A stretch of 64,000 bases of DNA. It comes from Candidatus Falkowbacteria bacterium. GTDB lineage: Bacteria; Patescibacteriota; Patescibacteriia; UBA11705; JABHMO01. The DNA lies in NCBI GenBank assembly GCA_018674305.1, contig JABHAL010000004.1, positions 128,446-192,445 of the forward strand, in the 5' to 3' direction. The notes under the pieces are model-generated. The model was given only the letters and a program-made list of their open reading frames with translations, searched no databases and was not told where the DNA came from. Position numbers and translations under genes: made by a program. Position 1 is the first letter of the stretch. Every line of letters begins with the position of its first letter. Positions 7,927 through 26,227 of the stretch are shown piece after piece.

Positions 7927-7962
7927 AACAAAGAACCTTCATCACGTGAAGGTTCTTTTCAT
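7927..7962. terminator. Bidirectional intrinsic terminator downstream of the PBP gene
   Basis: AAAGAACCTTCA-tcacg-TGAAGGTTCTTT hairpin flanked by T-runs on both strands. Confidence 0.65.
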
Positions 7963-7975: not shown

Positions 7976-10840
7976 TTATTCAACAGTCACTCCAACTGAA
8001 CTAGATTTGAAATGTTTACCTCCCGGATCAACAATATCTACATAAAGTTGGTATTCACCTTGTTCAAAAACTGCTGGCCATTCAAACACAATATTACTTT
8101 GCTTTGGTAAAATAACTGTTGACAATAAATTAATCTGACCAGTGTCCATTTTTCTTTGATAAAAATCAACCTTTTTACTTGAGACAAGGTCAGTTAACTT
8201 CATATTGACTTGGACTGGAAATTGACTCTGCTTTATTATTTCGCCACTGCTAATTGATGTCCAGATAACACTAGGCTCTGGTAATTCCACGGTAATATTT
8301 AAATCAATTTGTGTTTCATTACTATTATCAACATCATCATAGGCGATAACCCTCAACTTATGATAGCCTTTGCTAAAATAGCTACTAAGTAAATAATGAA
8401 GATTAAAGGGTGCGTTGGTTTTAGTAGCGATTAGAATGTTGTCAATATAATATTCAACTCGATGAACACCACGTGGAGCTGACGCATTAATTGACGCACT
8501 TAAAGTTGTATCTGAAATTGTTTGGTTATTTTTAGGATTAACAATAAAAATCGTTGGTTTGTTTTCCTCTGTATGCACATTATCATATTCCGTTGGTGGA
8601 GTTTCAAAAATAAATTCACTATCTTCACCGCCTTCTTCGTCTGTACGTTTTATCCAATCTTGAACTCCAGCCTCCCATTGTTCATATGCTGAATCCGTGC
8701 TTGCAGGATTTTCTGGGGCACCACCTTGCGGATCATCTTTGTAAACATAATGCAAAATGCTATGAGCATCACGGAATTTTTTCTCTTCAATTGAACTTTC
8801 TGGTGTAAACTCGTTGGCTAATTTACCTGAATGCTTGTCAATTTTGACTACTATTTCTGGAGATACTTCACCATCAAGAATTGGTTTACCGGTTTTTTCA
8901 ATTTCCACTTCAGGAAAACTATCAACTGGTGAACCTTCAAGAGCTTTGGCCATAAAGTTATGCCAGATTGGCGCTGCTACCACTCCACCAGCTGCACCTT
9001 TTTTCATTTCTGAATTATCATTATTACCTACCCATACTCCAGCGACTAAAGACGGCGTATAACCAACAGTCCAAGCATCACGATAATCATTAGTGGTACC
9101 TGTTTTAGCGGCCGCTGGTCGACCAGGTAAAGTCAAATAACTCCCAGCACCAAACACATAGGCGCGTGCTGCATCATCAGACAACATATTTGTTAAAATA
9201 TTGATATTATCTTTGTTCATTACTTTACGTTTTTTCTCTTTATACTCAATTAAAACATTTCCTTTACTGTCCTCAACTTTTAATATTGCTACTGGCTGAT
9301 GGTAGACACCTTGATTAGACAAAGTACCAAAAGCTGCTGTATGTTCTAATAATTTCACTTCTCCACCACCTAAAACTAGAGATAAACCAAAGCGAGATCT
9401 ATCTTCAAAGGTGGTGTAACCAAATAATTCCAACATATCAATCACCTTTTGCACCCCTACTAAGTAAATTGCTTTTACCGCTGGAATATTCAAAGAACCT
9501 TGCAAAGCTTTGCGCATTGCCACAGGTCCATGTTCCATTAAATCATAATTTAGTGGGTGATAATCCTTGGTATCTGTCTTAAATGTTGTTTCTACATCAT
9601 ACAAAATAGTATCCGGAGTATATCCTTTTTGCAATGCCGCTAAATAAACTAGGGGTTTCATTGATGAACCAGGTTGTCTTAAACTCAAAGTCACATTTAC
9701 ATTACCATCATTTTCTAAATCAAAATAATCCTTTGAACCAACCATGGATAATATCTGACCTGAGCTCGGGTCAAGAGCTACTAAAGCAGCATTATGAAAA
9801 CCATATTGAGCTCCTTTAAGTTCCACTCCATCTATAACTGCCTGCTCGCCTTTTTCTTGTTTATCCAAATCAAGAGTAGTAGTGACTTTCAGTCCACCAT
9901 TTTCAACTAATTCATCTCCCAATTCTTCACTTAATAATTCTTTTACGTACATCACAAAATGAGGTGCAATAATTGACTGTTTCTTCAAGGCAAATTCTAT
10001 TTCTTCATTACCAGCTTCCTCAGCTTGCTGTTCAGTAATGTAGCCACCTTTTACCATTTGATCTAAAACATACTTTTGTCGGTTGAATAAATCATCGGTA
10101 TGTGAACCATATGGAGAATAATAGGTCGGAGCTTGTGGCAACGCTACTAAAACAGCAGCTTCTCCTAAGGTTAATTCTTGCACATCCTTATTATAAAATG
10201 TTTGACTGGCCGATTGAACACCGTAAGCAACAGAGCCGTAAGGAATCTCATTTAGATACATTTGTAAAATTTCATCCTTGTCAAAAGCTTTTTCAATTTT
10301 ATAAGATAATATAAATTCTTTTATTTTTCTAGATATTTTTCTTTCATTAGTTAAAATTGCATTTTTTACAAACTGTTGAGTTAAAGTTGAGCCACCGCGC
10401 ACCCTTTTTCCCATTAACGGATCAATAATTACCCCCTTAAACATAGCCAGTAAATTAAATCCTTTGTGTTCATAAAAATGCTTATCTTCAGCTGAAATAG
10501 TTGCCCATTTAACAAATTCGGGAATATCTTCAAGTTTAACTAAAGTTCTTTTTTCTGCTCCATGAATATCATACAAAACCATTTCCTCATCACGATCATA
10601 AATCTTTGTACTTTGTGAAATATTACGTTCCAAAATCTTATTCGGATCCGGCAAGCTCCTAGAATACCAAGCTACTGCGCCAATTAAATATATTCCAATC
10701 AAACAAACCAAAACAATACTAATATAAACTCCCTTGCTAATCCAATAGCGAATTTTTTTTCTTAGTTTCTGTTTGAAAAATTTTCTTTTTCGTGGTCGCC
10801 GAGGTCCATTACGAACTACACGAAGTTGAGGAATTGGCAT
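7976..10840 (-). CDS. Class A penicillin-binding protein (GT51 transglycosylase plus transpeptidase) with C-terminal Ig-like extension
   Basis: N-terminal TM; GT51 motifs (EDKHFYEHKGFN, RKIKE); transpeptidase SxxK (SGSSMKP), SLN and KTGT(T); ~250-aa beta-rich C-terminal extension. Confidence 0.9.
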   Translation of the reverse strand: MPIPQLRVVRNGPRRPRKRKFFKQKLRKKIRYWISKGVYISIVLVCLIGIYLIGAVAWYSRSLPDPNKILERNISQSTKIYDRDEEMVLYDIHGAEKRTLVKLEDIPEFVKWATISAEDKHFYEHKGFNLLAMFKGVIIDPLMGKRVRGGSTLTQQFVKNAILTNERKISRKIKEFILSYKIEKAFDKDEILQMYLNEIPYGSVAYGVQSASQTFYNKDVQELTLGEAAVLVALPQAPTYYSPYGSHTDDLFNRQKYVLDQMVKGGYITEQQAEEAGNEEIEFALKKQSIIAPHFVMYVKELLSEELGDELVENGGLKVTTTLDLDKQEKGEQAVIDGVELKGAQYGFHNAALVALDPSSGQILSMVGSKDYFDLENDGNVNVTLSLRQPGSSMKPLVYLAALQKGYTPDTILYDVETTFKTDTKDYHPLNYDLMEHGPVAMRKALQGSLNIPAVKAIYLVGVQKVIDMLELFGYTTFEDRSRFGLSLVLGGGEVKLLEHTAAFGTLSNQGVYHQPVAILKVEDSKGNVLIEYKEKKRKVMNKDNINILTNMLSDDAARAYVFGAGSYLTLPGRPAAAKTGTTNDYRDAWTVGYTPSLVAGVWVGNNDNSEMKKGAAGGVVAAPIWHNFMAKALEGSPVDSFPEVEIEKTGKPILDGEVSPEIVVKIDKHSGKLANEFTPESSIEEKKFRDAHSILHYVYKDDPQGGAPENPASTDSAYEQWEAGVQDWIKRTDEEGGEDSEFIFETPPTEYDNVHTEENKPTIFIVNPKNNQTISDTTLSASINASAPRGVHRVEYYIDNILIATKTNAPFNLHYLLSSYFSKGYHKLRVIAYDDVDNSNETQIDLNITVELPEPSVIWTSISSGEIIKQSQFPVQVNMKLTDLVSSKKVDFYQRKMDTGQINLLSTVILPKQSNIVFEWPAVFEQGEYQLYVDIVDPGGKHFKSSSVGVTVE

Positions 10841-10859: not shown

Positions 10860-11786
10860 TTACTTAAATAACATTCTAATTATATCACGTCCAGGAAATC
10901 TTGACTTACCCAAATGAGGATAATGATGCAAAACAACATGTGGTCGTGGATTTACTTCAATAATAACGCCTTTGTCGCTGGAAATGTCTTCAGTTAAAAC
11001 ATCAACTCCAGCGCTAGCTAACTTCAAAGCTCGACAAGCTTCAATAGCAACGCTTTTTAATTTATCTGAAATTTGCTCTGTACAATCAATACTTGTACCA
11101 CCTTCTGCAACATTAGCTGCATTTCTTAAAAAAACTTTTTCACCTCTTGCAGGAATACTATCAAAAGTATACCCCCTAGACGCTAAAATCTTTTCAGATT
11201 TTTCGTCCAACTTGATATCTTTTTTGTATTTCTTCTTTATCTTATTTTTCTTTTTTACTAACCATTCAACATCATGCTTGCCGTCACCTTCCACAAAAGC
11301 TGGTACTCGCTTTACTACATACACATGTTTATAATCAATCACCGTAACCCTATAATCATCCCCTGGAACAAACTCTTCTATTAATACTTTCTTACCATAC
11401 TTTTTCGCAAATTTAAAAGCTTTTTTCAGGTTTTTTAATGTTGTTACTCCAACTGTCACTCCTTTTCCCAAAGAAGATTTATTAGGCTTAACAACCACCC
11501 GTTTATGTCTTCGATAAAACGCCAAGAGTTCACTATAATTAGTTACTAGTTTTTGTTTTGGGACCGGCAATCCGAAAGTTTTTAAAACATCAACTGTCAT
11601 CATCTTATTATCTGCCAAAAGATAACTAAGTCTACTGGTAAACTCGGTGGCAGATCGATTAATCAATCTAGTTTGCCTTCCCTTGCTCACGACATGTAGA
11701 GCACCTTCTGGATCAAATTTAGCAAAACGAAGACCCAGGCTTCGAGCTGAATTTCTTAGCACCTTAACGTGAGCTGGTTCTCTCAT
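10860..11786 (-). CDS. ATP-grasp ligase paralog D (cyanophycin-synthetase-N-terminal / RimK-like fold)
   Basis: KPNKSSLGKGVTVGV, EEFVPGDDYRVTVIDYKHV and GVIIEVNPRPHVVLHHYPHLG ATP-grasp motifs; start overlaps the stop of paralog C by 4 nt. Confidence 0.6.
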   Translation of the reverse strand: MREPAHVKVLRNSARSLGLRFAKFDPEGALHVVSKGRQTRLINRSATEFTSRLSYLLADNKMMTVDVLKTFGLPVPKQKLVTNYSELLAFYRRHKRVVVKPNKSSLGKGVTVGVTTLKNLKKAFKFAKKYGKKVLIEEFVPGDDYRVTVIDYKHVYVVKRVPAFVEGDGKHDVEWLVKKKNKIKKKYKKDIKLDEKSEKILASRGYTFDSIPARGEKVFLRNAANVAEGGTSIDCTEQISDKLKSVAIEACRALKLASAGVDVLTEDISSDKGVIIEVNPRPHVVLHHYPHLGKSRFPGRDIIRMLFK

Positions 11787-12751
11787 ATCTTGTGATGTTT
11801 AATTAACATTTGAATTAGTTTTTTTGCTGGATTTCTTTTCCTGCCTTGATGAGGATAATGATGCATCATAAATCCAGGAATTGGATTAACTTCAATAAAA
11901 AACCCCTTATCCTTGGTATAATCACGACACATAAAATCAAAGCCAGCAACTGTCATCTGCAATGCTTTGGCAGCATCAATGGCCATTTTTTTTATGTTAG
12001 GATTCACTTTATCAGTAATATCAATAGTTTCACCACCAGTTGCCAAATTTGCAGTTCGCCGCACAAAAACTCGGTCATCCATAATCGGAACATCTTGTAA
12101 ATTTAAATCCTGACGAGCCAATACATGCTCCAGTGATTCATCTATCACAATTTTTCGCTTGTGTTCTTTTTTCTCTCTGTTTTTTCTATTAATCAACTGA
12201 CGAATTGTATCTTTACCATTACCAATGACGTAAGCTGGTATTTTTTTTATTGCAAAAATATGTTTATAGTCAATAACCAAAATGCGGTGATCATCGCCAG
12301 GTACGGCCTTTTCCGCTAACACACACTTTGAATAAGTTTTTTGTAGTTTCTTCTTACTGGTATGTTTCAATGCAAAATTAACAGCTCGACGAAGATCCTC
12401 CTCGGTTTTAATACCAATTGTAATACCTTTTCCTCGGTTGGCAGACAAAGGCTTGATAACTATTTTCTTGTGTCTTTTTAGAAAATTTATCGCTTCACTA
12501 TAATCCTTGATTAATTTGAATTCAGGAACCGGAAAACCAGCTTTTTTAAGAGTATAACTGGTCAAAAACTTATTTGCAGCAATTGTATAATAAGGATCAC
12601 TAACCAATTCAGTTAATGTTTGATAAACATAAGTAAATTTATTTTTTCTTTGCAACGCAAAAATACTCTTACTATTGCCAATACGTCTAGCTTTAATGCC
12701 AAACTTCTCAGCCTCATTTAATACTACTTTTACGTAAGGAGATGTTTTCAT
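11783..12751 (-). CDS. ATP-grasp ligase paralog C
   Basis: KPLSANRGKGITIGIK, PGDDHRILVIDYKHIFAI and GFFIEVNPIPGFMMHHYPHQG; paralogous to D. Confidence 0.6.
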   Translation of the reverse strand: MKTSPYVKVVLNEAEKFGIKARRIGNSKSIFALQRKNKFTYVYQTLTELVSDPYYTIAANKFLTSYTLKKAGFPVPEFKLIKDYSEAINFLKRHKKIVIKPLSANRGKGITIGIKTEEDLRRAVNFALKHTSKKKLQKTYSKCVLAEKAVPGDDHRILVIDYKHIFAIKKIPAYVIGNGKDTIRQLINRKNREKKEHKRKIVIDESLEHVLARQDLNLQDVPIMDDRVFVRRTANLATGGETIDITDKVNPNIKKMAIDAAKALQMTVAGFDFMCRDYTKDKGFFIEVNPIPGFMMHHYPHQGRKRNPAKKLIQMLIKHHKI

Positions 12752-12772
12752 AAATATAATTTTTACCTTATG

Positions 12773-13639
12773 TTAGCAATTTTCAAGATATTTAACGATT
12801 TGCTCAGCAACATTAATTTTGGTAATCTTGGTAAAACGTTTAAATTTAGGTGAACGATTTACTTCCAAAAGTTTCAAGTCATCACCATCTTTTATTATAT
12901 CAACTCCAGCAATATCTGTATTCGTTGCTTTAGCTGCTTTCAGTGCTAATATCTTCAGGTCCTTGGTCAATTCTGCAAAAACTGATCGTTTGGCCAACGG
13001 AATGTTTTTTCTTTCCAAATTGAAATAACTCATTCTTTTCATTGCGCCTAAAACTTCATTACCAACCACAACCACGCGATAGTAAAAATTACTGTTTAGT
13101 CTTTTCTGAATTAGAAATTGTTTAACTTTATTTTTTCTTTTCTGAAAAAACTGCTCTAAGCCTTTTTTTGTTTTGAATGAATAAATATTACGGCTTTGCA
13201 TACCAGCAATATCCTTGATGACAACCGGTCTAGGGATTTTAGCCATATAGCGAGATAATTCCTCATAAGTCGAAAAGTGAAATGTATCAATACAAGGTAA
13301 TCCCTTCTGAAAAAACTCAAAAGACATAAACATTTTATCAAACTCATAAGCCTTATTATACAACTCCCGATCAATCACTTCTGTGCCAGAAAATTTCAGA
13401 AAGCGTGCCAAGGTTTTAGCTTTAGCAAAGTGTGGTGAAATCCCTCGGAACAAACAAACACCAAAACCATCCAGTTTTTTACCGCGCCAATATGCTTCCA
13501 TTTTATTACCTCTTACTAATAAGGATATTTTACTCAGAGAAGTATGTACCACATGGTGATGACGCTTTTTCGCCTCTTGAGCAATGCTGATATTTTCTTT
13601 TGACTTCGGTCCAATTATTAATAACTTCATAATAAACAA
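12773..13639 (-). CDS. RimK-family ATP-grasp ligase paralog B (alpha-L-glutamate-ligase-like)
   Basis: Collinear with E. coli RimK: YRVVVVGNEVLGAMKRM ~ IRCLVVGDEVVAAIERR; IAGVDIIKDGDDLKLLEVNRSP ~ [22 protein letters not shown]. Confidence 0.7.
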   Translation of the reverse strand: MFIMKLLIIGPKSKENISIAQEAKKRHHHVVHTSLSKISLLVRGNKMEAYWRGKKLDGFGVCLFRGISPHFAKAKTLARFLKFSGTEVIDRELYNKAYEFDKMFMSFEFFQKGLPCIDTFHFSTYEELSRYMAKIPRPVVIKDIAGMQSRNIYSFKTKKGLEQFFQKRKNKVKQFLIQKRLNSNFYYRVVVVGNEVLGAMKRMSYFNLERKNIPLAKRSVFAELTKDLKILALKAAKATNTDIAGVDIIKDGDDLKLLEVNRSPKFKRFTKITKINVAEQIVKYLENC

Positions 13640-13677
13640 AAATAAACTTTATAAATTTTTTCCTTCACGAACCTTTA

Positions 13678-15078
13678 TTACCCTTTTGTTGGATCAATTA
13701 AAAACTTGCGTAAATCTCGCCTTCCTATTATAACAGGATATTTCATATTCTCCCTCATGATAACAGAGGCATTCGAGTTAATTGACGTTCCTGCTAATTC
13801 TATTTTCAAAGGGATTTCCATTCGATAAGATGCGCCATGACTACTATAAGTTTTGGCAACCGCTACAATGTCTTCATGCTTTTCCAATTCTTTCCAAACT
13901 TTACGACTGCTCAAATCATCCAATTCCTGTTTTGTTAATACTCGTTTAATATCAAAAGTTTGATAATACTCAATAGCTTCACCATATCCCAACTGACGAG
14001 AGAAATTTTCATCTATAGAAGTAATTCCTGCTCCGGTATCCAACTTCGCTGAACACTCAATCCACTCGCCTTTTTTATTCTTTATTTTTATATCATTTAT
14101 TATACCTAAAATTTTCTTTCCTGTAATGCCTTCCACCTCATCTTCAATTTCACCACCAAACAATTCTTTAGCAACTTTGATCCCCTTGCTTACTGTTTTG
14201 ATTTTTAAACCTTCAACGCGGAGTAACCGATCTTTGAGTGATGCCAAATTAGCAATTTGAATTGACAGACCTGGGTGCGCATTTAATTCTAGAATAATAG
14301 GGCCCTTTTCTCTGTCAATGGCAATATCTACACCTGAATACCCCAATCCACAAACCATTGCAGCCTTGACTGACAATGCTAAAATTTCATCCCAATAAGG
14401 AATTTTTATTCCTCTCAAGGGTATTTTAATATCTGGCAAAGTCTCAATTAACCTGTCCGACTGGATAGCATTGGTGGTTACTCCAGTAGAAATATCAATT
14501 CCTACACAAATTCCACCTTGATGAAGATTGGCTTTGCCACGAGACGCCTTGGTCGGAAGTCTAAGCATCGCCATAACCGGAACTTTATTATAAATAATCA
14601 CTCTCACATCTGGAACCCCCTTATAACTATATAATTTAAATGCTGGATGAATTTTTAACCGCTCTTCAAAAAAAGCGGTGTCTGGTACATTAGTCTTAGA
14701 ATAATTACCGTCCAAAATGTTAGAAACTCTTGAAACAATATCTCGCAGACTAGCATCCTTATTGTTTGGCAAAACCCAATTACCATTTTTCTTTTTCCCA
14801 AAAGTTACTACTATCCCTTCACCACCTAATCCTCTATTGGGCTTCAAAACAAAACTTTTTGGTAGACTTGTCCAGTCAAACTTATAAAACTGTTTTCTGT
14901 TTTGTATCTTGGCAATAATTTTACAAACTGGTAATTCATGTTTTTCCAACAACTTTTTGGTCCTTAATTTATCATCAACCAAGGCCACCCGGTTTTTGGT
15001 GGCTGTAGGTCTTATAAATTTCAAATTCCTGGCGTTCATGCCAAGAATTAGTTTACTTTTTTGTAGCCAACTCAACAT
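13678..15078 (-). CDS. RimK-related ATP-grasp ligase fused to a C-terminal retropepsin-like (DTGA) aspartyl-protease-like domain
   Basis: N-terminal ~300 aa carry ATP-grasp motifs (GGEGIVV, ILELNAHPGL); C-terminal ~150 aa carry CSAKLDTGAGITSID (clan AA D-T-G-A). Overlaps the upstream 7TM gene by 26 nt. Confidence 0.65.
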   Translation of the reverse strand: MLSWLQKSKLILGMNARNLKFIRPTATKNRVALVDDKLRTKKLLEKHELPVCKIIAKIQNRKQFYKFDWTSLPKSFVLKPNRGLGGEGIVVTFGKKKNGNWVLPNNKDASLRDIVSRVSNILDGNYSKTNVPDTAFFEERLKIHPAFKLYSYKGVPDVRVIIYNKVPVMAMLRLPTKASRGKANLHQGGICVGIDISTGVTTNAIQSDRLIETLPDIKIPLRGIKIPYWDEILALSVKAAMVCGLGYSGVDIAIDREKGPIILELNAHPGLSIQIANLASLKDRLLRVEGLKIKTVSKGIKVAKELFGGEIEDEVEGITGKKILGIINDIKIKNKKGEWIECSAKLDTGAGITSIDENFSRQLGYGEAIEYYQTFDIKRVLTKQELDDLSSRKVWKELEKHEDIVAVAKTYSSHGASYRMEIPLKIELAGTSINSNASVIMRENMKYPVIIGRRDLRKFLIDPTKG

Positions 15079-16606
15079 TTTTTATAACCTTTCTAAAACG
15101 ATAATATTCAGTTAAACGTAAGCCAGTCCATTTTCCAATCAAAACATTCAAAATTATGGTACCTAAAATAAACTCTGGGTAACCAAGAATAAACGTTCTC
15201 ATAAACTGCCAACTGACCAGCCAATAACATATAATTGATAAAAATAAAGTCTCTATAACTAAAACAATTGCGCTTTTGTGACCTCTTTCAATTTGTACTG
15301 AAATAAACTTTTCAGTCAAGAGCACCATCACCAAAATAGGGAATATAGAAATTTCCAAAAGTCCCGTTTTGTTCATCGAGGCACCTAATAAAAACGCCAA
15401 GAAAATCGAAAAACTTACCATAGTCAAAACAATCGCCATTCTCGGTAAGTAAGACAACCGAACTTTGCGTGCCAACAAACGACTCACCGTTCCTACAATT
15501 AGTGTCATTAGAAACAATGCTAAACCATATTTTAAGCCTGTGACCAAAAAAGAAACTGCCACAATAGAAGGCATGTAAATACCCATAGCCTTGACTCCGA
15601 TAATTTGACGAAAAAAAGCAATCACCGTAGCGATGATTGGCAAAACTAAAATTAAATAAATTGTATTCAAGGCTACACCGTTATCAACCATGTAACTAAC
15701 AAAATACGAAACAAAATTTGACCACTTTAAACGATTAACATCCCGCTGAGTATGTAGGCCAACTAGCCGGTAATCAGTTTGTCCATATTTTAATCGATTT
15801 AGAAGGCCAGGAAAATCAGTCGTGGAAAATACTTCATTCATAGCGTCCGCCCGAGTCAAAACAATAAATTGTGGTGAAATTAAATTATAAACGCTCTGTC
15901 CCAAGCGAGCTGTAGCTGAAAAATTTTGATCAGTAATGACCACAAAGTATTTATTTGCAAAACCAAAACTATCTAGGTTACTTCCATTCTCGTCCGATGC
16001 CTTGGTCAAGTCTTGCGCGACTTCCAATAACGCATTAAGCCCAACATTGTTTTTTGTCCAAACTACAATTGAACTAGCTTGTCTGATGTCCTCTTTACTT
16101 TTTAATATTTTTTGAGCTAATTCTTTTTCTGCAATATAATCAACTTCATCTTTGACTTGAAAATCAACAACAAGAGTACCCTGTGCAGAAGCAATCGTTT
16201 GTACCGCTTGTAATTTTTCTGGCTCAAGATTTACGTCACTAATAAGAATCATTACATCCTTATCAACATTAACAATAATCTCATCCACTCCAGTCAATTG
16301 ATCTTCTCCTGCTACTGCCTTGAGCTCCAGCTTGACTCTATAAACACCGGAGTTGTCATAGGTATGTGTGACCTCTTTGCCATTTGCCCAATAACCATCA
16401 CCAAAATCCCAACGATATTCAACTTGGTCTACATTATTAGTAATTGAACCCAAAGCTGAGAAAATAACTTGGTGGTAAACAACTACGTTTCTATCCTGCC
16501 CAGCCACCGCTTTCAACAATGGAGTAGTATCAATTTCGTCTTGTGCCAACGCAAAACCTGGACAAAGTAGAATTGTTAATACCATTAATATAATAATTTT
16601 CTTCAT
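15053..16606 (-). CDS. Signal-peptide / PKD-like extracellular domain / C-terminal 7-TM membrane protein. Candidate '7TM plus inactive transglutaminase-like' partner of RimK-type ligases; that family assignment is recalled from the literature and not verified here.
   Basis: Sec signal MKKIIILMVLTILLCPGFALA; PKD motif YRWDFGDGYWANGKEVTHTYDNSGVYRV; ~290-aa extracellular region followed by seven hydrophobic helices (residues ~300-500). Confidence 0.55.
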   Translation of the reverse strand: MKKIIILMVLTILLCPGFALAQDEIDTTPLLKAVAGQDRNVVVYHQVIFSALGSITNNVDQVEYRWDFGDGYWANGKEVTHTYDNSGVYRVKLELKAVAGEDQLTGVDEIIVNVDKDVMILISDVNLEPEKLQAVQTIASAQGTLVVDFQVKDEVDYIAEKELAQKILKSKEDIRQASSIVVWTKNNVGLNALLEVAQDLTKASDENGSNLDSFGFANKYFVVITDQNFSATARLGQSVYNLISPQFIVLTRADAMNEVFSTTDFPGLLNRLKYGQTDYRLVGLHTQRDVNRLKWSNFVSYFVSYMVDNGVALNTIYLILVLPIIATVIAFFRQIIGVKAMGIYMPSIVAVSFLVTGLKYGLALFLMTLIVGTVSRLLARKVRLSYLPRMAIVLTMVSFSIFLAFLLGASMNKTGLLEISIFPILVMVLLTEKFISVQIERGHKSAIVLVIETLFLSIICYWLVSWQFMRTFILGYPEFILGTIILNVLIGKWTGLRLTEYYRFRKVIKNVELATKK

Positions 16607-16619: not shown

Positions 16620-17111
16620 TTAACTTTTTAACTTATCTGAATTAGCTGCGCAGATAGCCACCGCTAAAGCATCGGCTGCGTCATCTGGCTTTGGAATCTT
16701 TTCTAAATTCAAAAACACTTTAACCATCTGCTGAACTTGCGCCTTTTCAGCTCGGCCATAACTAGTTATGGCTTGTTTAACCTGAAGAGGTGTAAACTCA
16801 ACAATAGGCTTGCCAGCTTCGACCGCTGTTAGCAAAATCACGCCTCGTGCCTGACCAACCTTAATCGCAGTTTTTACATTTTTAAAAAAGAAAAGTTCTT
16901 CAACTGCCACCAAATCTGGATTATATTTTTTAATTATTGATTTTAAATCTTTACTCAAGTATTTTAAACGCTGAACAAACTCCTCATCTTTATGGGTTTT
17001 GATAACTCCATAATCAACACATTCAAACACAGATCCTTTAACTTTAATCACGCCAAAACCAGTGAGGCCATAGCCTGGGTCGATTCCGAGAATTACTTTT
17101 TGTTTAGACAT
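16620..17111 (-). CDS. ruvC: Crossover junction endodeoxyribonuclease RuvC
   Basis: ILGIDPGYGLTGFGVI...VEELFF...GQARGV...ADALAVAICAA is collinear with E. coli RuvC including the catalytic acidic residues. Confidence 0.9.
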   Translation of the reverse strand: MSKQKVILGIDPGYGLTGFGVIKVKGSVFECVDYGVIKTHKDEEFVQRLKYLSKDLKSIIKKYNPDLVAVEELFFFKNVKTAIKVGQARGVILLTAVEAGKPIVEFTPLQVKQAITSYGRAEKAQVQQMVKVFLNLEKIPKPDDAADALAVAICAANSDKLKS

Positions 17112-17145: not shown

Positions 17146-17511
17146 TCACTTTTTGCGAATACTCTTCTCTAAATTAGTAAGCTCGGTCCATAACATAGCT
17201 CCGATCTCTTTTTCCAGCTTAGTTCCCTCTTCATACTCCTCTTTCGAAATAAACTCTTCAACTAATGAGAATTCCAAAAGATAACTTGACTCCTTAAATG
17301 ACCCTAAACTGATTTCCAAATGATTAAGTCTTACCAATGTCTTTCTTCTGGCATAGCCTTCAATATAATTTAGTATTATTGACAAAGCTGCTCTTCGAAA
17401 CTGTGATACTGAGCTATACATTTCTTGCTTTGGAAAGTTTCTTGTTATCCTATAAACAAAATGAACATAATCATTCATCAATTTCTTCAGTTTTTCTTGA
17501 TATGCATTCAT
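17146..17511 (-). CDS. Four-helix-bundle protein (TIGR02436-like, the family first seen in 23S rRNA intervening sequences)
   Basis: 121 aa, all-helical, with the family hallmark NYIEGYARR (cf. NIAEGxGR) and an LEFSLVEE...EY tail. Confidence 0.6.
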   Translation of the reverse strand: MNAYQEKLKKLMNDYVHFVYRITRNFPKQEMYSSVSQFRRAALSIILNYIEGYARRKTLVRLNHLEISLGSFKESSYLLEFSLVEEFISKEEYEEGTKLEKEIGAMLWTELTNLEKSIRKK

Positions 17512-17544: not shown

Positions 17545-18261
17545 TTACTCGATATTAGTATAAACGCCATTCACATCATCGTGAGCTTCAAGCAAATCCA
17601 TGATCCTCTCAATCTTCTCAGCCGATTGTTCATTAACTTCCTGCTTATCTTTAGCTACCCATTCCATTTCCGCATAATCAAGTTTAATGCTTTTATTTTC
17701 CAATTCTTTTCTTACCTTTTCAAAATTAGAAAAACTAGTCTCAATTGTTAGACCACCTTCTTCTTCCTCCACATCATCAGCGCCTAAATCAATCACTTCC
17801 ATCATTAATTCATCTTTATCTTCCAGTTTAGCTAAATCGACACGAATAACTCCTTTGTGTTCAAACATCCATTTAACAGAGTTTTGAGCTCCCAGTGAAC
17901 CTCCGTTTTTGGTAAGAATAGCTTTCACTTCTGGCGTAGTTCGATTTTTATTATCGGTCACTCCTTCAATCAATAAAGGCATTCCCCCTGGACCATAAGC
18001 TTCATACAAAACCTCCTCAATAACCGCACCACCAAGTTCACCGGTCCCACGTTTGATTGCATTTTCAATTTTGTCCTTGGGCATGTTGCTAGCCTTGGCC
18101 TTGTCAATTGCTATCTTTAAGGAAAAATTCATATCTGGATCGCCACCACCCCGAGCCGCGACCGAAATATTTCTTGAAAGTTTTGTAAATAAATTACCGC
18201 GAGCTGCATCAGTTGCTCCTTTTTGACGATGAATTTTGTCCCACTTAGAATGTCCGCTCAT
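17545..18261 (-). CDS. yebC: YebC/PmpR-family DNA-binding transcriptional regulator
   Basis: MSGHSKWDKIHRQKGATDAARGNLFTKL...NMPKDKIENAIKRG is the canonical YebC N-terminus. Confidence 0.9.
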   Translation of the reverse strand: MSGHSKWDKIHRQKGATDAARGNLFTKLSRNISVAARGGGDPDMNFSLKIAIDKAKASNMPKDKIENAIKRGTGELGGAVIEEVLYEAYGPGGMPLLIEGVTDNKNRTTPEVKAILTKNGGSLGAQNSVKWMFEHKGVIRVDLAKLEDKDELMMEVIDLGADDVEEEEGGLTIETSFSNFEKVRKELENKSIKLDYAEMEWVAKDKQEVNEQSAEKIERIMDLLEAHDDVNGVYTNIE

Positions 18262-19837: not shown

Positions 19838-20242
19838 TTAATTTGCGACTGTAGTAGCTGACGACAAATTGGTCACTACAAAACTGGAGATTGCGTAAGC
19901 AGATAAGACCAACGCTAAACCAATAATAGCATTAATCAACCACTGTTTAGCTTTTTTCACTTGATCTTCATTTCCACCAGCGGTCATCCATAGAAATCCA
20001 GCATAAACAATAATCACTAGAACAATCACTCCAAGTAAGGTCAAAACGATCTTAACAATGTTACCGATTATACCAACCAAGTCTGTTCCGTCTTTGTCTT
20101 GACCAAAGTCTTTAGCAAAAAACTCCATATTTCCTTCAGCATCCATAGGAGTTAAGCCTTGATCTAATATGTCTTGAGCTCCAATAGCTCCTGGTAATAG
20201 CAATAAAGATAATATTGCTAAAATTGGCATTACTTTTTTCAT
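19838..20242 (-). CDS. Secreted two-helix membrane protein, VirB2/TrbC-pilin-like topology, paralog 1 of 9
   Basis: Sec signal (AIGA|QD); variable ~40-aa region; conserved core IVKIVLTLLGVIVLVIIVYAGFLWMTAGGNEDQVKKAKQWLINAIIGLALVLSAYAI. Confidence 0.5.
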   Translation of the reverse strand: MKKVMPILAILSLLLLPGAIGAQDILDQGLTPMDAEGNMEFFAKDFGQDKDGTDLVGIIGNIVKIVLTLLGVIVLVIIVYAGFLWMTAGGNEDQVKKAKQWLINAIIGLALVLSAYAISSFVVTNLSSATTVAN

Positions 20243-20274
20243 AAGTTTTCTATATTTAATTATTTATTATCTTA

Positions 20275-20661
20275 TTATTTAGTTGTTGCTGATGCAAGAT
20301 TTTGCACTACGAAACTGGAGATTGCATAAGCTGCTAAAATCAAGGCCAGGCCTATTACCGCATTTATTAACCATTGTTTCGATTTTTTTACTTGGTCCTC
20401 ATTACCGCCGGCCGTCATCCAGAGAAAACCTGCGTAAATGATTATTACTAGCACTACGACTCCCAGTAATGTTAGCACAATTTTGACGACATTACCAACA
20501 ATCTCAACTAAGTTTTTATCACTACTTGCATACCCCGCTTGAGTTTGAAAGTCGGTTAAACCCTTTGCTGTAGTTTTAGTTAAATCAACATCCATTGCCA
20601 TAGTCATTGTTGGCATAACCAATAAAGAACATAGCGTTAATATCACAAACAATTTTTTCAT
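20275..20661 (-). CDS. Pilin-like paralog 2 of 9
   Basis: Signal peptide plus core YAGFLWMTAGGNEDQVKKSKQWLINAVIGLALILAAYAI. Confidence 0.5.
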   Translation of the reverse strand: MKKLFVILTLCSLLVMPTMTMAMDVDLTKTTAKGLTDFQTQAGYASSDKNLVEIVGNVVKIVLTLLGVVVLVIIIYAGFLWMTAGGNEDQVKKSKQWLINAVIGLALILAAYAISSFVVQNLASATTK

Positions 20662-20687
20662 ACTAATTTTAATTATTTAAAATCTCC

Positions 20688-21065
20688 TTAAGTTGTAGTC
20701 GCTGCGAATAGATAACTAACTGCGAAATCAGCAATTGCATAGGCTGCTAAAATTAACGCCAGACCAATTACTGCATTTTTTAACCACTGTTTAGCTTTTT
20801 TCACTTGATCTTCATTTCCACCAGCACTCATCCACAAAAATCCAGCATAAACAATAATTACAACAGTTATTATGCCGACCAATGTTAATACTATCTTGAT
20901 GATATTACCAACGATATCTACTAAAGTTCCCTTACCTGTATATCCAGTTTTGTCTTTGAATGTTTCCATTTCCTTGACAGGATCACCACCAATTGTTGCT
21001 GCTGTAGCTACCAGGGGCATAGCAAACAGAGAACACAAAGTTAAAATTACAATTAAATTTTTCAT
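20688..21065 (-). CDS. Pilin-like paralog 3 of 9
   Basis: Signal peptide plus YAGFLWMSAGGNEDQVKKAKQWLKNAVIGLALILAAYAI. Confidence 0.5.
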   Translation of the reverse strand: MKNLIVILTLCSLFAMPLVATAATIGGDPVKEMETFKDKTGYTGKGTLVDIVGNIIKIVLTLVGIITVVIIVYAGFLWMSAGGNEDQVKKAKQWLKNAVIGLALILAAYAIADFAVSYLFAATTT

Positions 21066-21081
21066 ATTGATTTGATTTATT

Positions 21082-21489
21082 TTAGGTGGTTGTTGCTGTA
21101 ACTAAATAATCAACCGCAAAGTAGGCGATCGCATAAGCTGCCAAAGTTATAGCTAAACCAATTACAGCATTAGTCAACATTTGCTTTGCTTTTTTTACCT
21201 GGTCTTCGTTGCCACCTGCGGTCATCCACTGTACACCGCCCCAAACAACTAATATTACCATGATAATACCAAGTAAAGTTAAAATAATTTTAATTATACT
21301 ACCAACAATTGTAGGTAAATCTGCTTTTGGTTTATCTGCACCGTGTAAACCTTTACCTACATTACCCAATTCACCAAGTGGTCCATCCGCAGCCAAAGCA
21401 ATTCCACCACACAGAACAAAACTGAAACAGATTACTAACAAAAATGTTACTACTTTTAATGTAAATGGATTTTGACGTAAAAAATTCAT
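21082..21489 (-). CDS. Pilin-like paralog 4 of 9
   Basis: Signal peptide plus WGGVQWMTAGGNEDQVKKAKQMLTNAVIGLAITLAAYAI. Confidence 0.5.
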   Translation of the reverse strand: MNFLRQNPFTLKVVTFLLVICFSFVLCGGIALAADGPLGELGNVGKGLHGADKPKADLPTIVGSIIKIILTLLGIIMVILVVWGGVQWMTAGGNEDQVKKAKQMLTNAVIGLAITLAAYAIAYFAVDYLVTATTT

Positions 21490-21531
21490 AATTTTTTTGT
21501 ATAGAGTAATAAGTAAAGAGTAACAAGTGAT

Positions 21532-21568
21532 TACCTTTTACTTTTTACCTTTTACTTTTTACTTTATT
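21532..21568. repeat. 14-bp tandem repeat (taccttttactttt) x ~2.6 in the 77-bp gap upstream of paralog 4
   Basis: Read directly: taccttttactttt taccttttactttt tactttatt. Confidence 0.6.
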
Positions 21569-21971
21569 AAACTCCAGCTGCTGTACTAAGCTTCTCCACA
21601 AAATAATAAGCAATTGCATAAGCACCCATAGTTACGGCCATACCTAGCACACCTTCAATCAGCATACTTCGAGCTTTTTTCACCTGATCAGCATTTCCAC
21701 CAGCGGTCATCCAGGTGATTCCACCATAAACAACTATGATCACAAAAATAATTCCTAAAATTGAAGTTACAACTTTCAAAGCTTTACCAATTACACCCGC
21801 TGGATCAGCGGCTGTAGTACTAAATCCGGCGCCAGGCGCAGCAGCATCAAGACCTGCCTTGGCTTTGTCAGTAGCACCACTAGCAAAAACATTATTGGTG
21901 ATTATAGTTAAATTAAAAACCAATAAACTGATAATGATTGAAAATAATACTAATTTTTTAAGCATATTCAA
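21567..21971 (-). CDS. Pilin-like paralog 5 of 9
   Basis: Signal peptide plus YGGITWMTAGGNADQVKKARSMLIEGVLGMAVTMGAYAI. Confidence 0.5.
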   Translation of the reverse strand: MNMLKKLVLFSIIISLLVFNLTIITNNVFASGATDKAKAGLDAAAPGAGFSTTAADPAGVIGKALKVVTSILGIIFVIIVVYGGITWMTAGGNADQVKKARSMLIEGVLGMAVTMGAYAIAYYFVEKLSTAAGV

Positions 21972-21994
21972 TATAAATTAAAACCTCTAATAAA

Positions 21995-22378
21995 CTAAAG
22001 AGTCCCGGAAATCTTAGCAATTACATATGCAGTTAATTGGTATGCCATTAAGGTAACAACTAAACCAATCGCCGCATGGATCAAAGTTTTTCTTGCCTTT
22101 TCTACATTTTGCGGAGTACCTCCAGCGGTCATCCACATAATTCCGCCGTAAACAATCATAATTAGGAAAGCAATACTAACGTAGCCAAAAAAAACTCCAA
22201 TGTACTGACCAATAACCTTTTCAATTGTATTATCAGCTTTAGGCAATAAGCCCGGTTTTTCAGCTGCTCCTTTTAAACCATCCGCAAAATCGCCAGCTAT
22301 AGCTAAATTAGGAATAGCTAAAAAACAAATTCCGATCAATAATATAAAAACAATTAAAAAATATGAGTTTTTTTTCAT
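21995..22378 (-). CDS. Pilin-like paralog 6 of 9
   Basis: Signal peptide plus YGGIMWMTAGGTPQNVEKARKTLIHAAIGLVVTLMAY. Confidence 0.45.
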   Translation of the reverse strand: MKKNSYFLIVFILLIGICFLAIPNLAIAGDFADGLKGAAEKPGLLPKADNTIEKVIGQYIGVFFGYVSIAFLIMIVYGGIMWMTAGGTPQNVEKARKTLIHAAIGLVVTLMAYQLTAYVIAKISGTL

Positions 22379-22472
22379 AGAATCTTATTTCTAAAAAGCT
22401 TTCTTCTCATTAATTAACAATGTGTATTATTAACTAATGAGAAGGGCAGATAAATCTGCCCTTTAAACTTTT

Positions 22473-22877
22473 TTATTCGGTTGTTGCAGTAACTAGATTA
22501 GTGATTACAAAACTGGTAATCGCGTATGCGCTTAGAATAATTGCTACGCCTATTATACCAGAAACAATGTATTTCCTCGCTTCTTGTACTTTCTCATCGC
22601 TACCACCAGCTGTCATATATTTAAAGCCTCCGATCAAAACAATTACGATCGCGATCACACCCAAAAATCCAAGTGCAACTTTAATTATAGCTCCAATAGT
22701 TTCCTTCAAATCTTTATTTCCTAAATTTGTGTTGTCACCAACTGCGCCAATCCCAAATGGGTCTGGTGCTGGATCCTCAAGCGCCACGGCTGGTAAAGCA
22801 AATGTTGCAAGCATGAAAATTACTAGGAAAAGTCCCGCGAACATTTTGATTTTGTTTGTGTCTACGTACATGTGCAT
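22473..22877 (-). CDS. Pilin-like paralog 7 of 9
   Basis: Signal peptide plus IGGFKYMTAGGSDEKVQEARKYIVSGIIGVAIILSAYAI. Confidence 0.45.
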   Translation of the reverse strand: MHMYVDTNKIKMFAGLFLVIFMLATFALPAVALEDPAPDPFGIGAVGDNTNLGNKDLKETIGAIIKVALGFLGVIAIVIVLIGGFKYMTAGGSDEKVQEARKYIVSGIIGVAIILSAYAITSFVITNLVTATTE

Positions 22878-22913
22878 TTTCTTAATTATTAATTTTTTAT
22901 ATATATTAAATTA

Positions 22914-23285
22914 TTAAACTCCGAATTTAGAAATTATTGTACTTACTAGTATATAACTCATAAAAATGATAAATAACCCCAAAGCCGCCCAAATCATTGA
23001 ATGCTCGGCTGTCTTAATTCTTTTTTCATTACCGCCTGAGGTCATCCATATTATACCACTATAGATAAAAATCACCAAAGCAACTGTCCCGATTATCCCC
23101 AATGCCATACCAATAGCTTTTCCAATTAATGCATTAAAATCATCACTTTTAACAATTTCGTCACCAAACGTTGAATTAATCTTACTGGTAGCATCAGAAA
23201 TAGCATCCGCGTGAACAACAGCAATTGACACTACGAAAAAGAAAAAACATGAAAGCAATAAAACACCTACTATTTTTTTATACAT
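22914..23285 (-). CDS. Pilin-like paralog 8 of 9
   Basis: Signal peptide plus YSGIIWMTSGGNEKRIKTAEHSMIWAALGLFIIFMSY. Confidence 0.45.
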   Translation of the reverse strand: MYKKIVGVLLLSCFFFFVVSIAVVHADAISDATSKINSTFGDEIVKSDDFNALIGKAIGMALGIIGTVALVIFIYSGIIWMTSGGNEKRIKTAEHSMIWAALGLFIIFMSYILVSTIISKFGV

Positions 23286-23295
23286 ATTAAATAAT

Positions 23296-23661
23296 TTAGG
23301 AACCTGCTAAAACTTTTAATAAAGTCTTTATAAGAGCCCCTGATAAAAATATTATAACTAGACCAATAAAAGCATTTTTTAACATAGTTGTTGCCTTACC
23401 TATTCTTTCTTTGTTCCCACCAGAGAGCATATACATGATACCGCCAACTACAAAAACCAGAAGAGTAACTGATCCTGAAATTCCCAAAATGATCTGGGCA
23501 ACATTCGCAATAGTTTGTTCTACACTTCCTAGGTTGCATTTATCAACAGGAGCATCTCCTAAACATTCGCCGGGAACAATTGAAGGAAAGGCCAGTGTTG
23601 ATTGTCCAACCAGCAAACCAAAACTAATTAAAATAATTACAAATATAATTTGTTTTTTCAT
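23296..23661 (-). CDS. Pilin-like paralog 9 of 9 (most divergent)
   Basis: Signal peptide plus VGGIMYMLSGGNKERIGKATTMLKNAFIGLVIIFLSG. Confidence 0.4.
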   Translation of the reverse strand: MKKQIIFVIILISFGLLVGQSTLAFPSIVPGECLGDAPVDKCNLGSVEQTIANVAQIILGISGSVTLLVFVVGGIMYMLSGGNKERIGKATTMLKNAFIGLVIIFLSGALIKTLLKVLAGS

Positions 23662-25093: not shown

Positions 25094-25963
25094 TTATATT
25101 TTTAAACTTTTCAAATACTTTCTAAAGTCAGCTCTCAGGTCCGGCCTAGTTAGTGCCAATTCAACGTTCGCACGTAAATAACCAAGCTTTGAACCTGTAT
25201 CATAATAAATACCATCAATCTTCTTGGCATAAATTGGTCGCTTCTTGGATAATTTAAAAATAGCATCAACCAACCACAATTCCCCGCCTTTTCCTAATTT
25301 GGTTTTTTCTAATTCTTCAAAAATATCTGGTGTCAAAACAAAACCACCAAGAGAAGCTAATAATGAAGGTGCCTTTTCTGGTCCTGGTTTTTCTACTATT
25401 GTATTAACTTGTAAAACATCTTTTTCAACTTCCAGCCCATCAATAATGCCATATTTATTTGTGTCCTTTTTGGATACGCCATAGGCAGTCAAAACAGGAT
25501 CTCCATATTTTTCATAAACTTCCGTTAATTGTTTGAGTTGTGGTTTTTTCTTGGTATAAAAAAATTCATCTCCCCACATTACAGCAAACGGCTCATCTCC
25601 AATCAAATGCTTGCAACACAGAACTGGTGTACCATTGCCATATGGACCTTTCTGCCGTATATAAATAAAATTGGCCATGTCCGCAATTTTTTTAATCTCT
25701 TTTCGCATTTCTTCTTTTCCCGCTTTTCTTAGAAAATTCTGCAATTCATAATTGTAACCAAAATGATCTTCCACGGCTCGTTTACCACTACCGGTAACTA
25801 AAATTATTGTTTCAATACCAGACCTTACTGCATCCTCAACCACATACTGAACAATCGGCTTATCAACTACTGGCAACATTTCTTTTGGTTGCGCCTTTGT
25901 AGCTGGCAAAAATCTAGTTCCGTACCCAGCCACTGGAATAATTAATTTTTTGACTTTAACCAT
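25094..25963 (-). CDS. galU: UTP--glucose-1-phosphate uridylyltransferase
   Basis: IIPVAGYGTRFLPATKAQPKEMLPVVDKP is the canonical GalU N-terminus. Confidence 0.85.
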   Translation of the reverse strand: MVKVKKLIIPVAGYGTRFLPATKAQPKEMLPVVDKPIVQYVVEDAVRSGIETIILVTGSGKRAVEDHFGYNYELQNFLRKAGKEEMRKEIKKIADMANFIYIRQKGPYGNGTPVLCCKHLIGDEPFAVMWGDEFFYTKKKPQLKQLTEVYEKYGDPVLTAYGVSKKDTNKYGIIDGLEVEKDVLQVNTIVEKPGPEKAPSLLASLGGFVLTPDIFEELEKTKLGKGGELWLVDAIFKLSKKRPIYAKKIDGIYYDTGSKLGYLRANVELALTRPDLRADFRKYLKSLKI

Positions 25964-25975
25964 ATATTCAAATCA

Positions 25976-26227
25976 TTAACCAATTTTTAAAGTGTCTTTC
26001 AATTTCTTTAGTTTTGTAAAATAATGAATAAACAGAATTGCAAAATAAACGTTCACTGCTGCTATCAAGACAAAAAATAGGGCGAACAAAATAAACAAAG
26101 TTTGAGGATAAACCAAAACCAAAACACCCAAGGCAATCCAGATAACAGTTTGCAAAACAAAATACACAATGAACCACATTAATGTATTTCTAGTGTGCTG
26201 ATAAAATTTCTCTAGAAAATGTAACAT
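25976..26227 (-). CDS. Small two-helix membrane protein, hypothetical
   Basis: 83 aa, two long hydrophobic segments; an alternative overlapping frame (25968..26177) is less protein-like. Confidence 0.35.
   Translation of the reverse strand: MLHFLEKFYQHTRNTLMWFIVYFVLQTVIWIALGVLVLVYPQTLFILFALFFVLIAAVNVYFAILFIHYFTKLKKLKDTLKIG

Follow-up and report, generated by a model that had tools for sequence, protein, structure and literature searches.

A gene module of probable Rlo type in Candidatus Falkowbacteria, with an ATP-grasp ligase fused to a retropepsin-like peptidase and paired with a seven-helix membrane protein

Five tightly packed and co-oriented genes, g1 to g5, lie on the minus strand at 10860-16606 of a 64,000-nucleotide (nt) stretch of the genome of an uncultivated Candidatus Falkowbacteria bacterium (assembly GCA_018674305.1, contig JABHAL010000004.1, forward-strand positions 128,446 to 192,445), referred to here as the window, and all five are confirmed as open reading frames. 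The first encodes a membrane protein with seven transmembrane (7TM) helices, the second a fusion of an ATP-grasp ligase to a retropepsin-like aspartic peptidase, and the other three further ATP-grasp ligases; judged from sequence comparison, the module very probably belongs to the Rlo family known from Pseudomonas aeruginosa. What is new here is a fused, transglutaminase-less Rlo-type module, widespread in Patescibacteria, with a variable set of accessory ligases. Taken as a whole, a Patescibacterial Rlo-type ligase-peptidase module with a membrane-coupled acidic-peptide mechanism is the interpretation that we favor, with some reservation.

The domain and motif content of the five genes and their layout are far beyond chance. 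An earlier note, made from the letters of the window alone, had described the tight packing with 4-nt and 26-nt overlaps, the WDFGDG and LDTGAG motifs, and an association of ATP-grasp, retropepsin and 7TM_transglut proteins; the overlaps and motifs lie where it had placed them, and family-profile searches match g1 to g5 as expected. The genes are as follows (aa, amino acids).

15053-16606, minus strand: g1, 517 aa, RloB-like membrane protein
13678-15078, minus strand: g2, 466 aa, fusion of ligase and retropepsin-like domains
12773-13639, minus strand: g3, 288 aa (TTG start), accessory RimK-family ATP-grasp ligase
11783-12751, minus strand: g4, 322 aa, accessory ATP-grasp ligase, cyanophycin-synthetase G-domain type
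10860-11786, minus strand: g5, 308 aa, accessory ATP-grasp ligase, cyanophycin-synthetase G-domain type

The 26-nt overlap is that of g1 with g2, and the 4-nt overlap that of g4 with g5; gaps of 38 nt and 21 nt separate g2 from g3 and g3 from g4, respectively. For g3 a public gene call chose a different start, the ATG at 13630, which gives a product of 285 aa.

Relationship to the Rlo system

The rloA-rloB-rloC genes of P. aeruginosa were named by Lormand et al. (mBio 2025) and have been studied both genetically and structurally (PMC12239564). Structures of RloA have been solved, and the enzyme cleaves runs of at least eight glutamates; loss of all three RloA paralogues abolishes growth in low-osmolarity medium and alters biofilm, antibiotic tolerance and cell shape, beta-lactam sensitivity or tolerance also being affected in the rlo system (PMC12239564). 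Deletion of either rloB or rloC suppresses the defects of the triple rloA mutant, including that of hypoosmotic growth (PMC12239564), which places the ligase, the 7TM protein and the protease in one pathway. The statement of the earlier note that no system of this kind has been characterised therefore does not hold: rloABC were studied in 2025 (the product of RloC excepted), and RimB, RimK and RimBK have been examined biochemically (PMC11957791).

The relationship of the window genes to this system is apparent from a betaproteobacterial locus (L085) with canonical rloA-rloB-rloC, in which the RloA, RloB and TIGR02291 models score 95, 409 and 438 bits. The ligase part of g2 is 43% identical to the RloC of this locus over residues 11-308, and the alignment ends at a conserved LFG just before a linker. 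The 7TM part of g1 aligns with its RloB without gaps (27% identity over 191 residues), and the two have in common R333, GxK, MP, PR, FP, E432, ERG, PE and GLRLTExxRF. By this homology g1 is of RloB type and g2 of RloC::RloA type. NCBIfam models for RloA and RloB exist, and they match g2 and g1.

There are several points of likeness and of departure. First, as in Rlo, a 7TM_transglut module, a TIGR02291/PF14397 ligase and a DTG retropepsin with basic channel residues are encoded by adjacent, co-oriented genes. Second, the order is B then C::A here, in contrast to A-B-C in canonical Rlo. Third, the retropepsin is fused to a cytoplasmic ligase, whereas RloA is a separate secreted protein with a signal peptide. 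Fourth, the transglutaminase ectodomain is missing; its place is taken by PKD and flavodoxin-like domains here, and by nothing in about 47 of 73 relatives. Finally, Patescibacterial loci have up to four extra ATP-grasp ligases, which Rlo does not.

Iyer, Abhiman, Burroughs and Aravind (Mol Biosyst 2009), whose paper is said to be the source of PF14397, PF14400 and PF14402, reportedly predicted a system of ATP-grasp, 7TM-inactive-transglutaminase and 'Zn_protease' proteins by computation, and the reading given in the earlier note is in line with it. As far as the Pfam names allow comparison with this prediction, the families co-occur here but PF14400 is absent.

The Rim systems provide a second comparison, in that an ATP-grasp enzyme of alpha-L-glutamate-ligase type is likewise paired with, or fused to, a cytoplasmic retropepsin. 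Little et al. (JBC 2025; PMC11957791) showed that polyglutamate is a substrate of RimB, a cytoplasmic protease, and that RimB also stimulates RimK. The protease is C-terminal in g2 but N-terminal in the RimBK hybrid of Desulfotalea psychrophila (PMC11957791); the g2 ligase is of RloC type and scores just 50.1 bits against rimK_fam (cut-off 143.4); and Rim has no 7TM partner and targets ribosomal protein S6. As a matter of logic, the arrangement also recalls the tubulin cycle, in which a ligase of the ATP-grasp type that adds to C-termini (TTL/TTLL) is opposed by a peptidase (MATCAP/VASH/CCP), though this is an analogy only: g2 of the window has no MATCAP domain, and a tubulin-like target is not known here.

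The ligase-retropepsin fusion

The product of g2 has three parts.

14155-15078, minus strand: RloC-type ATP-grasp ligase domain (residues 1-308)
14122-14154, minus strand: linker GEIEDEVEGIT (residues 309-319), acidic and predicted disordered
13681-14121, minus strand: retropepsin-like (RloA/RimB-type) aspartic peptidase domain (residues 320-466)

The ligase domain matches ATPgrasp_ST (PF14397) at 2.5e-69 and 234 bits (cut-off 31.4), and K79, D251, E264 and N266 are invariant in its homologues. The nearest solved structures are those of RimK (E ~1e-11), which is a poly-alpha-L-glutamate synthetase, followed by LysX/ArgX, CphA1 and Ddl.

The catalytic D347-T-G of the peptidase domain is at 14032-14040, within KLDTGAG at 14026-14046, and DTGAG is invariant. 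The NCBIfam RloA3 model matches g2 at 4.5e-08, and the PF05618 (Zn_protease/RimB-like) family is recorded for most g2 homologues. A profile of the domain reaches PDB entries 9g58/9g59, whose deposited name is "putative ATP-dependent zinc protease domain" and which we take to be RloA structures, as well as 2pma; the profile is needed to reach 9g58/9g59, as a search of solved structures with the single g2 sequence returns RimK fragments only. The family of this domain numbers 253 representatives at E <= 0.001, some of them stand-alone, others fused or longer. Many of these relatives are stand-alone proteins 115-250 aa in length, and two loci have an extra stand-alone retropepsin-domain gene immediately after the fusion (L009, 7131-7667; L049, 2843-3334).

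Three basic residues of this domain deserve mention. K345, R419 and R442 are invariant in g2 and, on sequence alignment, appear to match K46, R114 and R137 of RloA: K345 lies two residues before the catalytic Asp, and the Arg pair is 23 residues apart in g2 and RloA alike. In RloA these three residues bind polyglutamate and are required for activity (PMC12239564).

There is neither a signal peptide nor a transmembrane (TM) segment in g2, and both ligase and protease are located in the cytoplasm. Editing would therefore take place there, and not on a surface-exposed acceptor of the kind that the earlier note had suggested for assembly.

The g2 model (mean predicted local distance difference test score, pLDDT, 80.8) has two folded domains joined by a linker in which residues 310-325 have a pLDDT below 50. 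E312, E314 and E316 of the linker are invariant in 49 of 49 close homologues and less well conserved in distant lineages, and this acidic segment may be a pseudo-substrate or a self-cleavage site for an acid-preferring protease. A universal site of either kind was considered for the GEIEDEVEG linker, but its invariance does not extend to the distant lineages.

The membrane protein

The RloB-type protein encoded by g1 is composed of the following parts.

16544-16606, minus strand: signal peptide (residues 1-21)
16262-16519, minus strand: PKD domain (residues 30-115; PKD_4, 1.4e-16)
15752-16258, minus strand: flavodoxin/receiver-like alpha/beta ectodomain (residues 117-285; from the predicted structure)
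15056-15670, minus strand: 7TM_transglut module (residues 313-517; PF14402, 5.3e-31, 108.4 bits, cut-off 25)

The WDFGDG motif is at 16394-16411. The NCBIfam RloB model ("osmotic stress tolerance membrane protein") aligns to residues 314-509 only, which is the 7TM part. An AlphaFold2 model of the whole protein (pLDDT 86.6; predicted template modelling score 0.71) contains a PKD beta-sandwich, a flavodoxin-like domain, seven TM helices and a conserved cytoplasmic tail, and Foldseek places residues 30-115 close to collagenase PKD domains (template modelling score ~0.86). A degenerate transglutaminase fold had been suggested for this 517-aa protein, but structure prediction gave the PKD and flavodoxin/receiver-like alpha/beta domains instead; the inactive transglutaminase domain PF14400 was not found in g1 by Pfam profile search, and a structure search with the model gave zero matches to transglutaminase- or papain-like folds. 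No solved homologue of the 7TM module surfaced in whole-model structure searches, which were dominated by the ectodomains.

By the positive-inside rule, the N-terminus is expected to be outside and most of the invariant residues to be on the cytoplasmic face. These residues are in the motifs R333-Q-x-x-G-x-K, Y386-x-P-R, Q438-x-E and, in the tail, G-L-R-L-x-E-x-x-R-F. The cytoplasmic C-terminal tail was also considered as a conserved acceptor for ligation and was rejected; the tails are variable and mostly basic.

Conservation of the core and variation around it

A scan of one genome per species gave at least 600 matching stretches, 596 of them confirmed, and the best 80 were examined, with loci annotated using the window proteins as queries. 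The fusion is present in all of the best 80, most of which are from records named as Patescibacteria (Falkow-, Moran-, Kerfeld-, Dojka-, Levy-, Shapiro- and Peribacteria); other names are attached to some third-party metagenome-assembled genomes. The g2 family itself is large, with 5852 matches at E <= 1e-10 among 8000 candidates scored. For g1 and g2 alike, the nearest relatives bear the names Candidatus Kuenenbacteria and Falkowbacteria, which places the genome in the Patescibacteria (CPR), and a g2 protein identical to that of the window is found in all 24 contigs read, of 50 blocks indexed in a public assembly collection, one of them a 177 kb contig from JGI sample 3300024260. A literature search on the Patescibacterial form found no paper.

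A 7TM gene is directly upstream of the fusion in 73 of the 74 loci with enough flank, and the invariant core is thus this pair, obligately adjacent. The length of the 7TM protein varies among the 73 loci.

About 211-241 aa (7TM only): 47 loci
About 287-318 aa: 13 loci
About 506-553 aa: 13 loci, with a PKD domain detected in 11

The number of accessory ligases is also variable. Counted within 6 kb downstream at 49 loci, they are distributed as follows; each figure is a minimum, since a divergent ATP-grasp gene can escape detection, as one did in L003.

No accessory ligase: 26 loci
One: 13 loci
Two: 7 loci
Three: 2 loci
Four: 1 locus

Neighborhood conservation, which the earlier note had named as a check, therefore extends to the g1/g2 pair and not to g3-g5, and the four ligases in series, which it had taken to suggest stepwise assembly, are a lineage-specific elaboration. 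A Kuenenbacteria relative with 80% identity (L087) has zero ATP-grasp genes in the ~2.5 kb of contig after its fusion, relatives with 81% and 69% identity have three and two ligases, respectively, and an arrangement of three ATP-grasp genes before a penicillin-binding protein (PBP) gene, like that of the window, recurs in a relative. Several lineages have two to four ATP-grasp genes after the core, and in the lineage closest to the window some of these are g3-g5 orthologues. Orthologues of g5 are rare (15 matches at E <= 1e-20), and the named ones are from Kuenenbacteria and Falkowbacteria.

A further variation concerns the peptidase. Eight of the 80 g2 homologues are ~800 aa long, and all four of those scanned have a third, C-terminal domain, MATCAP (PF08014), which belongs to a metallo-carboxypeptidase family acting on protein C-termini.

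L047, 3474-5876: MATCAP-bearing g2 homologue
L070, 10001-12388: MATCAP-bearing g2 homologue
L071, 9977-12424: MATCAP-bearing g2 homologue
L073, 9992-12346: MATCAP-bearing g2 homologue

In three of these four (L070, L071 and L073) the retropepsin-like domain has no D-T-G, an apparent displacement of one peptidase by another. A peptidase is thus kept beside the ligase even though its type changes, which, together with the fusion itself, speaks for a single chain as the substrate of both ligase and peptidase.

The accessory ligases

In the RimK and cyanophycin-synthetase-G groups, the known ligases attach an amino acid to a carboxylate of a growing peptide or protein tail; g3 is of the first type, and g4 and g5 are of the second. 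The product of g3 matches Pfam RimK at 1.3e-24 and aligns with RimK structures from end to end, with scores below the cut-offs of rimK_fam (TIGR00768; 118.7 bits, cut-off 143.4) and PRK10446 (52.5 bits, cut-off 331). Its Lys, R-x-N and D/E/N residues are kept; the Gly-rich loop is degenerate, and the GG that usually follows R-x-N is missing. Both g4 (2.2e-71, a match over its whole length) and g5 (7.5e-72) align with residues ~161-474 of the 862 in the cyanophycin synthetase model TIGR02068, which is the G domain, and the best match of g5 among sequences of solved structures is the CphA1 G domain (7.8e-47). The alignment of both with CphA1 covers the entire G (ATP-grasp) domain. However, both lack the N domain and the Mur-ligase-like M domain, and neither can therefore make cyanophycin alone; their scores of ~242 bits compare with a full-length cut-off of 850.

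The earlier note had entertained the possibility that some of the ligases are pseudogenes with catalytic residues missing. In all four ligases of the operon the Lys that binds ATP (V-x-K-P) and the Mg2+ ligands of D...E-x-N are retained, and by inspection the R-x-N motif as well. The relative L002 has an intact orthologue of each of g3, g4 and g5 (300, 455 and 418 bits). Since the genes are intact and conserved in relatives, g1 to g5 are not pseudogenes.

A different function for these genes should be considered here, in which g4 and g5, and perhaps g3, make a di- or tripeptide of the osmolyte or thiol type, such as N-acetylglutaminylglutamine amide (NAGGN) or a glutathione-like compound, independently of the 7TM protein and g2. 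The matches of g4 and g5 to the ATP-grasp half of NAGGN synthetase, at 199-212 bits, and to that of GshAB, at 176-208 bits, are nearly as good as those to cyanophycin synthetase, Rlo has a link to osmotic stress (PMC12239564), and accessory ligases are gained and lost independently of the core. On the other hand, these scores are far under the full-length cut-offs (425-850), because the GNAT, GshA and Mur-like M partner domains are absent; the genes share an operon with the core, in which they overlap or abut; and it is the core that the two to four ATP-grasp genes, among them some g3-g5 orthologues, follow in several lineages. We give this explanation little credence.

A graspetide-type cluster, in which ATP-grasp enzymes cross-link a ribosomally synthesized and post-translationally modified peptide precursor and a protease removes its leader, is extremely improbable. 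PsnB is indeed among the structural matches of g2, and there is a protease domain in the cluster, but PsnB ranks below RimK, LysX and Ddl and is therefore a generic fold match. Moreover, a precursor gene would not fit within the cluster, whose gaps are 38 nt at most, and the families are RloC, RimK and CphA-G, with TIGR04187 at 17.6 bits against a cut-off of 350.

A proposed mechanism and its weight

We propose that the ligase domain of g2 would elongate an acidic alpha-peptide chain in the cytoplasm, polyglutamate-like as with RimK, in an ATP-driven reaction via an acyl-phosphate intermediate. The fused retropepsin would dimerise, as retropepsins must, and so bring two ligase units together; it could trim the chain or limit its length, with the basic residues of its channel binding polyglutamate as in RloA, and, with RimB and RimK as the precedent, it may also stimulate synthesis. 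The 7TM protein would dock g2 at the membrane by its conserved cytoplasmic face, and might pass on, export, anchor or sense the product, which would be linked to the envelope and to osmotic homeostasis as Rlo genetics suggests for Pseudomonas. In this lineage g3-g5 could extend or diversify the peptide. Drawn largely by analogy, this sequence of steps (an acidic chain made, trimmed and coupled to the 7TM protein, with diversification by g3-g5) is offered tentatively, as somewhat short of an even chance.

Several observations weigh against the Rlo-type assignment or the mechanism attached to it. First, two of the family scores are short of their thresholds: the g2 ligase reaches 279.7 bits against TIGR02291 (2.4e-83), below the equivalog cut-off of 314.2, and the peptidase reaches 26.7 bits against PF05618, just below the cut-off of 27. 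Second, a polyglutamate product would be an extrapolation from RimK and from the in vitro specificity of RloA. Third, the RloB transglutaminase is absent and the protease is cytoplasmic, so that the division of labor may differ from that in Pseudomonas. Fourth, an exporter or docking role for the 7TM protein is a guess, because no solved structure resembles the module. Fifth, the accessory ligases, undetected at 26 of the 49 loci by a lower-bound count, are dispensable in many relatives. Finally, at L092 (8515-10314) a 280-aa protein without a Pfam match and a strong RimK-like ligase lie between RuvC and PBP1 where the 7TM/g2 pair is absent, so that g3-g5 might have a function of their own.

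The chain might alternatively be attached to a protein, the ligases tagging the C-terminus of one specific protein, the retropepsin (elsewhere MATCAP) removing the tag, and the 7TM protein recruiting or regulating them. The membership of g3 in the RimK family, the position of RimK as the nearest structure for g2, and the fusion of g2 homologues to MATCAP, a family of protein C-terminal carboxypeptidases, are all in accord with such tagging. There is precedent in RimB/RimK (PMC11957791), and polyglutamylated proteins were considered by the authors of the Pseudomonas study as possible RloA substrates (PMC12239564). Nonetheless, a candidate acceptor was not found, the 7TM tails being variable and mostly basic; no gene for a small carrier protein is present in the cluster, with its gaps of at most 38 nt; the obligate partner is a membrane protein and not a ribosomal or cytoskeletal one; and for RimK the synthesis of free peptide and the tagging of protein can coexist. 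On balance tagging of this kind is rather unlikely.

The proposal of the earlier note can be restated more boldly, such that four ligases, an editing protease and a 7TM protein form an assembly line, neither ribosomal nor of the non-ribosomal peptide synthetase kind, for a hetero-oligopeptide or branched poly-amino-acid delivered to the envelope. We regard this as unlikely; if true, Patescibacteria would have an envelope polymer, or a modification of the wall, that is new to science, and it would show what the general Rlo product is.

Returning to the Rlo-type module with a membrane-coupled acidic peptide, its two-gene version (a 7TM-only RloB and an RloC::RloA fusion) extends a system whose RloB has been described as nearly confined to Proteobacteria, with 96% of its hits there (PMC12239564), to a distant phylum with very small genomes. 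The Patescibacterial core has no transglutaminase and no secreted protease, and both are therefore dispensable for it, which points to cytoplasmic or membrane chemistry. This minimal form eases the testing of what RloC makes and what RloB does with the product, and variants with added ligases are natural experiments toward the identity of that product. Rather than a new principle, this is a known system carried further, one that has been studied clinically but lacks a biochemical explanation.

The chromosomal neighborhood

The neighbors of the module on the same strand are as follows.

16620-17111, minus strand: ruvC, upstream neighbor (Pfam RuvC, 3e-53), ending 13 nt before g1
7976-10840, minus strand: class A PBP, downstream neighbor (Transgly, Transpeptidase and Big_7 domains), starting 19 nt after g5
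7930-7958, minus strand: terminator-like hairpin downstream of the PBP gene, a 12-bp stem followed by a T run

Further upstream are a 23S-rRNA-IVP/bAvd-like gene (17146-17511) and yebC (17545-18261), packed with gaps of 33-34 nt, and the next gene beyond yebC is a PGI-like gene in divergent orientation. Promoter and terminator scans gave counts equal to the shuffled expectation, and the hairpin after the PBP gene is therefore used only weakly as evidence. It is by far the longest of those found; the four others have stems of 5-9 bp, and three of them are within g1 and g5. It likely marks the end of the transcript, and ruvC and the PBP gene are probably on the same transcript as g1-g5 in this genome. 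Because of the packed gaps and the divergent PGI-like gene upstream, a single transcript of ~10 kb from yebC to the PBP gene is plausible on the gene layout.

Among related loci, ruvC precedes the module on its own strand in 37 of 66 and PBP1 follows it on that strand in 23 of 49. The Microgenomates and Peribacteria loci have the module by itself, flanked by genes of opposite orientation and with no PBP nearby. Metagenome loci anchored on RuvC are instructive. In two of them (L116 and L139) the backbone YebC-RuvC-TyrRS(opposite strand)-PBP1 is present without the module, and in two others (L095 and L134) the 7TM, fusion and ATP-grasp genes are inserted between RuvC and the opposite-strand gene for tyrosyl-tRNA synthetase (TyrRS). 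As the backbone is found both with and without it, the module behaves as a cassette, and adjacency to the PBP gene is largely inherited synteny. The earlier note had hinted at co-transcription with ruvC and the PBP gene; this is plausible in this genome, but the functional link that it implied was downgraded to synteny.

A role in cell-wall chemistry, in which the ligases build or modify a stem or bridge peptide of peptidoglycan, or some other wall-linked peptide, for the co-transcribed class A PBP, is suggested by the short distance to the PBP gene, by the sole long terminator-like hairpin that follows it, and by the recurrence of PBP1 in nearly half of the relatives. ATP-grasp ligases such as Ddl serve wall synthesis. 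The Pseudomonas rlo mutants are altered in shape and in beta-lactam sensitivity, and the triple protease mutant is sensitive to hypoosmotic conditions (PMC12239564). Against such a role are the backbone without the module, the TyrRS gene that separates the module from PBP1 at L095 and L134, the Microgenomates and Peribacteria loci, and the low scores of g4 and g5 against Ddl models (38-51 bits, cut-offs ~243). The link is retained as a minor rival, since co-transcription is likely and the rlo phenotypes involve the envelope, although we think it improbable.

The 121-aa bAvd-like gene between yebC and ruvC (17146-17511, minus strand) encodes a four-helix bundle. It is not at the yebC/ruvC position in L001, L004 and L088, and in L087 a gene of the same family (10473-10838) lies directly after g2, at the position of the accessory ligases; this gene may mark a recombination-prone or mobile spot.

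Other features of the window

The window is AT-rich, with a G+C content (GC) of ~0.35. The genes dnaA and dnaN are at 37485-40254, where GC skew (across ~32-40 kb) switches sign, and the replication origin is therefore probably there; the Rlo-like operon is ~20 kb from this putative origin and oriented with replication.

Nine tandem paralogous pilin-like genes of 121-135 aa are at 19838-23661 on the minus strand, each encoding a signal peptide and two TM segments, and most of the nine proteins have in common the motif WMTAGGNEDQVKKAK. In relatives the syntenic genes are assigned to PF18895 (T4SS_pilin), and several relatives again have the array upstream of the PGI-like gene, yebC and ruvC.

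At 31702-35485 (plus strand) GC rises to 0.46-0.50 from the ~0.35 of the genome. This GC-rich stretch, within 32-36 kb, was considered as rRNA, which was ruled out by zero Rfam matches; it encodes PspA/IM30-like, YqiJ_N-like and 679-aa SPFH/Band 7 proteins and is possibly a horizontally acquired membrane-stress island. Finally, a cluster of polysaccharide type occupies 25094-31442 on the minus strand, with genes for a nucleotidyl transferase, a Wzy_C/O-antigen-ligase-like protein, a GT1 glycosyltransferase and a Polysacc_synt flippase.

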